Source of the DNA: an uncultured Pseudomonadales bacterium
GTDB taxonomy: Bacteria; Patescibacteriota; Microgenomatia; UBA1400; PJMF01
Assembly (NCBI GenBank): GCA_964457085.1
Contig: CAYWDM010000002.1
Location: 116,037 to 180,036 of the forward strand
Length of the DNA stretch: 64,000 bases
Direction of reading: 5' to 3'
Shown here: positions 56,577 through 59,332 of the stretch, one piece after another
Layout of the letters: the number at the start of each line of letters is the position of its first letter
How positions within the stretch are numbered: position 1 is the first letter of the stretch
The notes under the pieces: generated by a model
The model's database searches: none
What the model saw: only the letters and a program-made list of their open reading frames with translations
What the model was told of the DNA's origin: nothing
Position numbers and translations under genes: made by a program

Positions 56577-57608
56577 CTACTGAGTTGCGGTATTTTCAGG
56601 TAAGAAGGTAATTGTGTCACTGTAGTTAGTACAGCTGTTTTTTTCGATGGTACAGACTCGGAAATAATAGGTATTATTTTTATCAGGCAATGCCCAGTCA
56701 TAGCTTGTCTTACCGCCAGTAATGTTTCGAAAACCGGTGGCAGTTTTTTGGTCAAGTGGCTTTGCACTACTTCGCAGCAGACGATAGGCGACTTTTTTTG
56801 ATGCGGAATCGCTATTTGGGTTGATCCAAATAAACGTAATTTTAGGAGTAGTTTTACCAATAGTTAGCAATAGTGGTTTGGTCGCAGTTTGTGTAGCGGC
56901 TGTTGTCGCGATTGGTGCAGTGGGAGGTGGGAGCATTGTCAGTGAGATTCGACTCTCTTCGGGTGTTGGCAGAGTGACGCTTGTTGTAGCTGTTGTTGTG
57001 AGGTTATCAGCTGGAATGATCACTTCGCTCTCAACGATAGCCGAATTGGTGAAGCTGTATGTTTCTCCCGAGCCAATAAGAATAGGAGTTTCATCCTCTG
57101 TGGTTTCATCAGAGTAAGTGAGCTCTACAGTTTTGTCATACACAGTGACTGACTGATTTGACAGAGTATTGCTGATTTTGAAAGTAGCACTAGTGATAGT
57201 GACTTCGTTGCTGCCAACTTCAATTTTTAATGGGTTTTGTTGTGAGCCCAAATATCTTCCTGATATCGAACCACTCAGCAGTTCCCAGGTTGAGGCACCA
57301 TTCGAGACCCCTTCGTATATTAATTGTGAGTCTGATTGCAAGCCAATTTGACTCACCGTGTTGAGCCAAAGTGAACCACTACTATCCTCACCAATTCGCA
57401 GCTGGGTATTGGGAGCGATGTGCTGGTTATCAATAGCAGGCAGCCAATCTTGATTCCCGATTTGGTATTCCACATTGCCACGAATATGAGTCAATTGACT
57501 ACTATGTGCAACTTGGGCAATTTTACTGAAAAAATGCACCAACCACACACTGAAGAATGTCAGGATAACCAAAGTTACCAGTGTCACAATTACGAGTGAG
57601 CGACGCAT
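56577..57608 (-). CDS. Hypothetical membrane-anchored Thr-rich extracellular protein.
   Basis: N-terminal transmembrane helix, a T/A-rich linker, and a C-terminal domain. Confidence 0.5.
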   Translation of the reverse strand: MRRSLVIVTLVTLVILTFFSVWLVHFFSKIAQVAHSSQLTHIRGNVEYQIGNQDWLPAIDNQHIAPNTQLRIGEDSSGSLWLNTVSQIGLQSDSQLIYEGVSNGASTWELLSGSISGRYLGSQQNPLKIEVGSNEVTITSATFKISNTLSNQSVTVYDKTVELTYSDETTEDETPILIGSGETYSFTNSAIVESEVIIPADNLTTTATTSVTLPTPEESRISLTMLPPPTAPIATTAATQTATKPLLLTIGKTTPKITFIWINPNSDSASKKVAYRLLRSSAKPLDQKTATGFRNITGGKTSYDWALPDKNNTYYFRVCTIEKNSCTNYSDTITFLPENTATQ

Positions 57609-57676: not shown

Positions 57677-58027
57677 CTACGCTTGTTTCAACATGCGTTT
57701 TAGCGTCAGAGCAAGGGTTGCAAGTCGCATCTTTTTTGTTTGTTTAGTTTCTTTGTTATATGAGTAAATTTCGCCAGAAAATTCGAAATAAGACATTCCA
57801 TTAGCAGTTGTTTGTGCGATCCTATCAGCTTCTTCAATCACCCTTTCCAACGTTGCTCCGGAAACGGGCTCTATTGGTTGTTCTGGGGTTAGACCATCTC
57901 CTTCTTTTCGCACGAACCATTGATCAGTTAGACCAAGTTTTATTAGCAACTCTTGTTTAGCTTCGTCAGTCATTTCTGGTGCAGCGGGAGGATTTGTTGC
58001 CCTTGTGGGACTTTCTTCGATTATCAT
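57677..58027 (-). CDS. Hypothetical small protein (116 aa).
   Basis: ORF only. Confidence 0.4.
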   Translation of the reverse strand: MIIEESPTRATNPPAAPEMTDEAKQELLIKLGLTDQWFVRKEGDGLTPEQPIEPVSGATLERVIEEADRIAQTTANGMSYFEFSGEIYSYNKETKQTKKMRLATLALTLKRMLKQA

Positions 58028-58051
58028 ATCTATGACTATATCTCATATATC

Positions 58052-58076
58052 AAAAAAACGCCGCAGAAGCGACGTT
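58052..58076 (-). terminator. Rho-independent terminator following tmRNA (minus strand).
   Basis: ACGUCGC-UUCU-GCGGCGU followed by U7 on the minus-strand transcript. Confidence 0.7.
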
Positions 58077-58084
58077 TTTAAATG

Positions 58085-58516
58085 TGGAGATGAGGGGCAA
58101 TGAACCCCTGTCCGTAAACAAGATCAAGAGTGAGCACTACAGACATAGTCAATCTTTGGTATGAATTAACTGGTGGAAATGACAGACCATGCTAATTCAC
58201 CCATAGCAGATTTGCTTAGCCCACCTCAGGCTATGAACTGTGAGGGCTGACACACGAACTGGGTTTTCACTAGTCAATTTCCGCTCGTGAAAGAACTCTG
58301 ACTAATGTCCCTTACAAGTTGCAATTAAGCAACGGCGTAAGATGGAGCCATCAAACTGGCGACGGTGTCTACGGCTGAGCCGAAGAAACTTGCCACTTTG
58401 CTGGTTAGACTGCGAAATGAATTGGCAGTTATTGTTTTTGACTCTGTTTTACACCCGTGAGTCAAGGGTGGTCTGCACTTGCTAATGAGCTGTCACGTCG
58501 ATGCAATTACATCCCC
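58085..58516 (-). ncRNA. ssrA: Transfer-messenger RNA (tmRNA, SsrA).
   Basis: The 5' GGGGAUG pairs with the 3' CAUCUCC, giving a G3:U wobble as in tRNA-Ala, followed by discriminator A. T-arm AGGGG-UUCAUUG-CCCCU. The 5' AUCGACG resembles the tmRNA D-analog consensus. The in-frame ORF ends ...APSYAVA-UAA at 58325-58327. There is no protein ORF on either strand across roughly 560 bp. Confidence 0.8.
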
Positions 58517-58525
58517 GTGATCTGT

Positions 58526-58554
58526 AGTATAGCTTTTTTAGTATTTTTTCTCAA
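58526..58554 (-). promoter_or_regulatory. Sigma70-like promoter for ssrA (TTGAGA-17-TATACT, about 9 nt to G+1).
   Basis: Hexamers and spacing read on the minus strand immediately upstream of the tmRNA 5' end. Confidence 0.5.
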
Positions 58555-58587
58555 GTAGCTGGTTTTTTTTATTGTTGTTATTATTGC

Positions 58588-59214
58588 TTATGAACCGTGT
58601 GCGATCGCTAGTCCATAAACGCTATTTGCACCAGCCGCTTTGAGTGCTCGGGCACAAGCTATAAGTGTGGCCCCGGTGGTGAGTACATCATCAAGCAGAA
58701 TAATGTTTTGGTTGGCACACTCTGGAGTCGCAAGAAATGTGCCGGCTTGGTAATGTTCTAATCTTTCCGCTCGACTCAGTCCAGCTTGGGGAGAGGTTGG
58801 TTGAGCTCGAGTGAGCAGTGACAGATAAGGTATACATATTGATTTGCTGAGATGTTTGGTTATTAATTCTGCTTGATTGAAGCCACGTTGATTGAGTTTG
58901 CTTTTGTGCAGTGGCACCCAGGTAATTATGGAGGCAGTCCAATCGGGAAAGGAAGCAAATGCGAGGTTTGCAAGAATCTCGGCAATTGCAGTCACACCTT
59001 GGTATTTTAAGGCACGAATTAGCGACTTAATTGGTCTGTTGTAAATAAATATAGCTGCTGATTCATCTAGCGCAGGGTCTGTCGGTAAATGCTGTAGCAA
59101 AGGAATACCTGGTTCAATTAATTCTTGGCAATTCTTGCAGAATAACTTGCCAATTCGACCACAATTCACACAGAAAGATGGATAGAACAGTTTAAGGAAA
59201 AATGAGAGATTCAC
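58588..59214 (-). CDS. comF: ComF-family phosphoribosyltransferase (competence protein ComFC-like).
   Basis: N-terminal Cys4 finger (CVNCG...CKNCQ); PRTase motif IILLDDVLTTGATL. Confidence 0.8.
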   Translation of the reverse strand: MNLSFFLKLFYPSFCVNCGRIGKLFCKNCQELIEPGIPLLQHLPTDPALDESAAIFIYNRPIKSLIRALKYQGVTAIAEILANLAFASFPDWTASIITWVPLHKSKLNQRGFNQAELITKHLSKSICIPYLSLLTRAQPTSPQAGLSRAERLEHYQAGTFLATPECANQNIILLDDVLTTGATLIACARALKAAGANSVYGLAIAHGS

Positions 59215-59255: not shown

Positions 59256-59332
59256 TGGTGGACAATACAGGACTCGAACCTGTGACCTCACGAATGTGAA
59301 TCGTGCGCTCTAACCAGCTGAGCTAATTGTCC
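59256..59332 (-). tRNA. tRNA-Val (anticodon CAC), CCA encoded.
   Basis: Manual fold: acceptor GGACAAU/AUUGUCC, D-arm GCUC-AGCUGGUUA-GAGC, anticodon stem CACGA/UCGUG with loop UUCACAU, T-arm ACAGG-UUCGAGU-CCUGU. Confidence 0.85.

Follow-up and report, generated by a model that had tools for sequence, protein, structure and literature searches.

The tmRNA locus and its features

The 560 bp from 58028 to 58587 of the window (the whole 64-kb stretch of DNA analysed here) form a gap between open reading frames of at least 50 aa, and this gap holds a tmRNA (ssrA) gene on the minus strand. The Rfam model RF00023 matches 58516..58082 (-) over model positions 1-374 of 374, with a score of 82.5 bits (gathering score 47) and an E-value of 1.9e-30. 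The only other Rfam match in the whole window is a tRNA-Val at 59259-59332. Homologous loci were fetched through AlaS and searched by nhmmer with the window RNA, and seven of the syntenic loci obtained in this way were run through Rfam, where each scored 72-87 bits over the full model. The covariance model thereby bears out the original prediction, which had placed a tmRNA on the minus strand of this ORF-free gap and had suggested a covariance-model search as a check. The 5' strand of the acceptor stem comes at the beginning of the gene and its 3' strand at the end, a colinear, one-piece order without permutation. A search of the window for the 29-mer from the ssrA 3' end returned one occurrence, as compared with zero expected. 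The features of the locus are as follows, in the direction of transcription.

58549..58554, minus strand: -35 hexamer TTGAGA, 17 nt upstream of the -10 hexamer (promoter scan)
58526..58531, minus strand: -10 hexamer TATACT, separated from the mature 5' G by 9 nt (promoter scan)
58085..58516, minus strand: tmRNA (ssrA) gene, 432 nt from the 5' G to the discriminator A (full RF00023 model; nhmmer and Rfam homologues in syntenic loci)
58510..58516, minus strand: 5' strand of the acceptor stem, GGGGAUG, with G3 in a G:U pair
58113..58497, minus strand: long-range helix H2, RNA positions 20-46 with 373-404 (9 of 20 pairs changed on both sides)
58438..58470, minus strand: PK1, with stem 1 CACCC/GGGUG (RNA 47-51/61-65) and stem 2 UUGACUC/GAGUCAA (RNA 52-58/73-79) (compensatory changes in close relatives)
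58325..58426, minus strand: tag frame, with resume codon GCC (RNA 91), 33 codons and stop codon UAA (RNA 190-192) (Rfam, ARAGORN, conservation, translation)
58318..58333, minus strand: helix 5 hairpin GUUGC-UUAAUU-GCAAC with the stop codon inside its loop (read from the sequence)
58145..58307, minus strand: PK2-PK4 region, with stems at RNA 210-225/235-249, 270-276/292-298 and 334-340/363-369
58093..58109, minus strand: T-arm AGGGG-UUCAUUG-CCCCU, with a 5-bp stem and a 7-nt loop (RNA 408-424)
58086..58092, minus strand: 3' strand of the acceptor stem, CAUCUCC, with the discriminator A at 58085 (read from the sequence and the alignment)
58052..58079, minus strand: intrinsic terminator AAAAACGUCGC-UUCU-GCGGCGUUUUU followed by a U run (ViennaRNA)

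The tRNA-like domain was found as predicted: the two ends of the RNA form an acceptor stem of 7 bp with G:U as its third pair, a discriminator A follows, and the bases after it are CAU, so that the CCA is not encoded. All seven pairs including G3:U are invariant in 10 of 10 aligned sequences. The T-arm, likewise anticipated, directly precedes the 3' acceptor strand, and its stem covaries (AU to GC and GC to CG, in either direction), occurring in six variants among 44 sequences. The T-loop UUCAUUG is off consensus as compared with the usual UUCGAnU. Across the clade the loop reads N-U-C-A-Y-N-N, and 32 of the 44 sequences could form a 54:60 pair. Neither the window gene nor its clade has the usual GG in the D-loop analogue, which in the window gene is followed by AUCGACG, the stretch that had been expected to resemble UUCGACG. 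These off-consensus parts of the domain lie at 58093-58109 and 58500-58509 (-) in the window and at the same positions in the homologous loci (L006-L135). The T-loop and the D-loop analogue thus depart from strongly conserved Rfam consensus positions, which are not family-defining. The tRNA-Val, located 740 bp from ssrA, has canonical loops.

A MAFFT alignment of ten sequences (455 columns) was folded with RNAalifold, and the 70 pairs predicted from it reproduce the acceptor stem, H2, stem 1 of PK1, stems of the PK2-PK4 region and the T-arm. In this alignment 91.7% of the pairing cells are paired, as compared with 76% in shuffles and 40-46% when the partners are slid by 1-3 columns. Changes on both sides are seen in 39 of the 70 pairs, and none of 500 shuffles reaches any of the five measures used. 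The fold is therefore backed by compensatory changes across syntenic homologues. H2, which connects the tRNA-like domain to the pseudoknot ring, and the ring itself (alignment helices 2, 3 and 6-9) are 73-97% paired, all with both-sided changes; PK2 and PK3 are represented by one stem each. The helices of the PK2-PK4 region have 6-7 pairs each with both-sided changes, and according to Rfam the PK4 hairpin is GUGAAUUAGC.../...GUUAAUUCAU.

For PK1 the compensatory changes can be read directly, among close relatives only, since automatic PK1 searches failed on most of the distant sequences. Stem 1 changes from CACCC/GGGUG to CGCCG/UGGCG and CAUCG/CGAUG, with 4 of 5 pairs changed on both sides, and stem 2 from UUGACUC/GAGUCAA to UUGGUUC/GAACCAA and UUGAUUC/GAAUCAA; the observed pairing is reached by 0 of 100 shuffles. 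Helix 5 has likewise changed on both sides in relatives (UUCGC/GCGGA in L081, AUUGC/GCAGU in L084). A small additional hairpin, CUGC...GCAG (RNA 89-92/104-107; 58410-58428 (-)), would form around the resume codon. Of the 10 aligned sequences 8 retain it, two of them with a GC/CG swap at one pair, and it may be a by-product of conserved codons.

The gene is flanked by signals for its own transcription, both of which had been predicted. The promoter TTGAGA-17-TATACT (58554..58526, 10 of 12 matches) is the sole such site that the scan returned between 57700 and 58900, and a TATAAT-like box lies about 7-16 nt from the 5' end in 8 of 8 relatives inspected. On the other side, the 3' flank folds in ViennaRNA to an 11-bp hairpin (-14.5 kcal/mol) followed by U7. 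A consensus terminator scan of the region reported nothing, and the hairpin was seen only by folding the flank. Three relatives (L084, L085, L086) have a different hairpin and U run at the same place.

Tag reading frame and detection by gene finders

Translation of 58426..58325 (-) yields the tag ANSFRSLTSKVASFFGSAVDTVASLMAPSYAVA and then a stop codon, confirming the predicted internal frame that ends in MAPSYAVA-UAA. Including the alanine carried by the tmRNA the predicted tag has 34 residues, A-ANSFRSLTSKVASFFGSAVDTVASLMAPSYAVA, and one of its predicted internal tryptic peptides is VASFFGSAVDTVASLMAPSYAVA. As to where the ribosome resumes, two codons had been offered. GCC at RNA 91 stands: it is aligned with the Rfam resume position after AAUAACU, it is the position called by ARAGORN after deletions (see below), and the frame that it opens is conserved among homologues. 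GCA at RNA 124 is in frame but 11 codons downstream and not needed, and was rejected. In the Rfam alignment the tag frame contains a 69-nt insertion relative to the consensus, and a model helix after the insertion is deleted; most of the extra length of the gene is due to this insertion.

The frame was followed through a larger set of tmRNAs. A metagenome scan with the 3'-end pattern of the clade returned 45 further loci, which together with the syntenic copies comprise 46 distinct tmRNAs of 381-455 nt. Read from the aligned resume codon, each of the 46 has an open frame of 23-42 codons (median 31), which in nearly all cases ends in TAA. The tags share an N-terminal motif (A/V/G)(N/D/E/K)xx(R/I)SK, e.g. 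ANxxRSK, and a C-terminal AP..YA.A. Between same-length pairs the frame differs at codon positions 1, 2 and 3 by 158, 117 and 235 changes (3 > 1 > 2), and 138 of 388 differing codons are synonymous, counts that are descriptive in that the pairs are not phylogenetically independent. Judged from these sequences, the codon-position bias and the synonymous changes are the pattern of a translated sequence. The helical hydrophobic moment of the tags exceeds that of shuffles (mean z 1.7; z above 1.64 in 26 of 40 tags), a result suggestive of an amphipathic helix in the central part of the clade tags.

Long tags are a property of the whole clade. The C-terminus still looks like that of an ordinary YALAA-type tag. 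Known tags range from 8 to 35 residues according to a review (PMC8012679); the window tag is near the top of this range and several relatives are above it. A 'Candidatus Peribacteria' locus fetched through AlaS (L046:1951-2354 (-)) has, near alaS, a tmRNA whose tag is 26 residues long, AKSSKLVSYAEGLAAGISLRLAPVAA, and long tags may be common in Patescibacteria beyond this clade. Our literature searches found no paper describing Patescibacteria/CPR tmRNA tags; such sequences may already be listed in the tmRNA Website or the Rfam full alignment.

ARAGORN, also suggested for verification in the original prediction, reported no tmRNA at default settings, neither in the whole window nor in the sub-region. 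The cause is a length limit of the program and not a defect of the gene. Removing one codon from the tag produced a normal call, and removing 3 nt downstream of the tag produced a call with resume position 91 and the full 33-residue tag. A 3-nt deletion ahead of the resume codon, in the PK1 loop, left the gene undetected. Since detection is restored only by deletions from the resume codon onward, the miss reflects a length limit on that part of the gene. With the limit lifted, ARAGORN reports the same gene, resume position 91 and the same tag as Rfam and translation. The off-consensus T-loop was also considered as the cause and rejected, for seven T-loop substitutions, an added CCA and a repaired D-loop were all without effect. 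At default settings ARAGORN detected none of the 11 syntenic copies, and of the 45 metagenome loci (L091-L135) it detected only 8; Rfam detected 7 of 7 loci tested. The length limit explains the miss of the window gene; relatives with shorter genes were also missed by ARAGORN.

The insertion in the tag region, the deleted model helix, the off-consensus T- and D-loops and the silence of ARAGORN at default settings are features that a decaying relic could also present, i.e. an ssrA pseudogene that has kept its tRNA-like ends but no longer works and whose long tag is an accidental frame created by the insertion. We consider such a relic very improbable. The long frame has been kept, with coding-type substitutions, in 46 widely divergent homologues, all helices have been kept through compensatory changes, the helix 5 hairpin with its stop codon is present and covaries, and promoter and terminator are intact. 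The off-consensus loops are common to the whole clade and are therefore conserved rather than decaying.

The silence of ARAGORN is also all that would speak for a chance resemblance, in which a structured RNA of another kind, or a small protein gene, merely looks like a tmRNA. With an E-value of 1.9e-30 over a 374-position model the probability of this explanation is practically negligible. A small protein gene is further contradicted by the lack of a start codon or ribosome-binding site ahead of the tag frame, and by RNA covariation that extends beyond it. The preferred reading, a standard one-piece tmRNA, draws its family membership from the covariance model, its fold from covariation and its reading frame from conservation, and the transcription signals and conserved synteny have been shown as well.

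Homologous loci and chromosomal neighborhood

According to Pfam, ssrA is adjoined by genes for a ComF-like phosphoribosyltransferase (58588-59214, minus strand), YqeY, a RodZ-like HTH protein, AlaS and FtsK; farther away lie PNPase, RNase J, IF-2, NusA and Suf proteins. By AlaS, the nearest named relatives are Patescibacteria (CPR), namely Pacebacteria, Woesebacteria and 'Patescibacteria group', and the best species-representative genome for AlaS is a 'Candidatus Paceibacterota' MAG (73% identity). The locus lies in a housekeeping part of a CPR chromosome. GC skew is positive throughout the window. The plus strand carries nearly all of the long ORFs, and ssrA, the comF-like gene and tRNA-Val form a small minus-strand block.

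Full-length homologues occupy the same position beside the comF-like gene in L084, L085, L081, L082, L086, L006, L008, L007, L031 and L032. Synteny extends to the comF-like gene, tRNA-Val, yqeY, alaS and ftsK near ssrA.

The DNA just beyond the 3' end of ssrA varies between relatives. Two relatives, L081 and L082 (1-1410 of each), are 99.95% identical from position 987 and diverge exactly at the 3' end of ssrA (...CCUCAUCUCCACA|). On the other side of this point L081 carries a 531-aa serine recombinase (Pfam Resolvase), whose final ~27 codons overlap the ssrA 3' end in antisense orientation; from sequence comparison, this looks like a mobile element integrated at ssrA. In the window, a 116-aa ORF (57677-58027 (-)) directly follows the ssrA terminator. 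It has no Pfam match and no tblastn match in any fetched locus, so that the window, too, has variable DNA immediately past ssrA. The next gene (343 aa, 56577-57608) is conserved beside ssrA in L084 and L085.

Variable DNA past the 3' end, the recombinase abutting ssrA in L081 and the adjoining ORF without homologues in relatives' loci would all suit an extra tmRNA copy brought in on an integrated mobile element or prophage, rather than the cell's own ssrA. This explanation is nevertheless extremely improbable. The gene occupies the same place (next to the comF-like gene and near ftsK and alaS) in relatives whose AlaS proteins are only about 55-88% identical to that of the window, and its neighbors are housekeeping genes. 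No integrase was found nearby, and no repeat of the ssrA 3' end (att) was found in the window with up to 3 mismatches allowed. Moreover, variable downstream DNA is to be expected if ssrA is the target of integration and not its cargo. We regard 58516..58085 (-) as almost certainly the chromosomal ssrA of a Patescibacteria (CPR) bacterium, a standard one-piece tmRNA.

Predicted trans-translation and comparison with known tmRNAs

The window gene is an ordinary ribosome-rescue RNA, a further member of a known family and expected in every bacterium; tmRNA is present in essentially all bacteria (PMC4131195). All findings fit ordinary trans-translation as it has been described (PMC8012679, PMC4131195). 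According to that scheme the RNA would be transcribed from the sigma-70-type promoter up to the intrinsic terminator, its ends would be trimmed and the CCA added enzymatically, and alanyl-tRNA synthetase would charge it with alanine through G3:U. Together with SmpB and EF-Tu it would bind to a ribosome that has stalled on a broken mRNA, entering at the vacant A site. The nascent chain would then move to the alanine, and the ribosome would resume at GCC (RNA 91), read 33 codons and stop at UAA. The released protein would carry the 34-residue tag at its C-terminus, the hydrophobic end YAVA marking it for an ATP-dependent protease. From the features of the gene we infer expression, processing and CCA addition, charging, SmpB-dependent ribosome entry and proteolysis of the tagged product.

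No smpB was found in the 64-kb window by Pfam on ten ORFs of 123-185 aa or by tblastn with E. coli and B. subtilis SmpB, and its absence from 64 kb says little for the whole genome. At one of the homologous loci (L101:3481-4296) the tmRNA, which has the same type of 3' end and the shortest tag of the set (23 codons), is directly preceded by smpB; the SmpB match there is 41% identical to E. coli SmpB (tblastn).

The value of the window gene lies mainly in its correct annotation. Pipelines that rely on ARAGORN will under-report ssrA in Patescibacteria, which could wrongly suggest a loss of trans-translation in reduced genomes. Beyond this annotation blind spot the added value is modest and consists of the clade-wide long tag and loop variants. 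The conserved tags of the clade, at or above the upper end of the 8-35 range, provide a natural test case for the co-evolution of tags with a reduced protease set.

A more far-reaching interpretation of the same sequences would be that this Patescibacteria clade evolved a distinct tmRNA variant, with a three-part long degron and a remodelled tRNA elbow, and not merely a longer one. We find this doubtful. The tag alignment points to a degron of three parts, which would be the A/V-N/D-x-x-R/I-S-K motif, a central amphipathic helix and the AP..YA.A end. By analogy with Mycoplasma, such a long degron could hand tagged proteins over to another protease or adaptor (Lon, membrane-bound FtsH). The apparent remodelling of the elbow (T-loop N-U-C-A-Y, possible 54:60 pair, no GG) could reflect co-evolution with the SmpB or the ribosome of the lineage.

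The Mycoplasma tag has 27 residues and has been called unusually long; in M. pneumoniae, an organism without ClpXP, it is recognised mainly by Lon (PMC8403727). The window gene resembles Mycoplasma tmRNA in coming from a reduced-genome bacterium and in its unusually long tag, rich in hydrophobic and aromatic residues. The two tags have no sequence similarity, however, and the window tag, with Ala-Asn at its start and YAVA at its end, is like ordinary ClpX-type tags. A Lon-directed long tag in the window lineage, parallel to that of Mycoplasma, may be put forward as a hypothesis.

With the two-piece (circularly permuted) tmRNAs of Alphaproteobacteria, some Cyanobacteria and Betaproteobacteria the window gene shares the function in trans-translation. 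In contrast to these, it is colinear and matches the one-piece model from end to end.

The closest counterpart in architecture is the one-piece SsrA of E. coli. E. coli tmRNA is 363 nt long, as compared with 432 nt for the window gene, and its tag has 10 codons as compared with 33; unlike E. coli SsrA the window gene has no encoded CCA, its T-loop reads UUCAUUG and its D-loop analogue lacks GG. Both have a tRNA-Ala-like domain with G3:U and a discriminator A, H2, and PK1 just before the resume codon. In both, an A-rich stretch (AAUAACU in the window gene) precedes a GCN resume codon, the UAA stop lies in the helix 5 loop, three pseudoknot regions follow downstream, and the tag closes with a hydrophobic YALAA-like end, SYAVA in the window gene.
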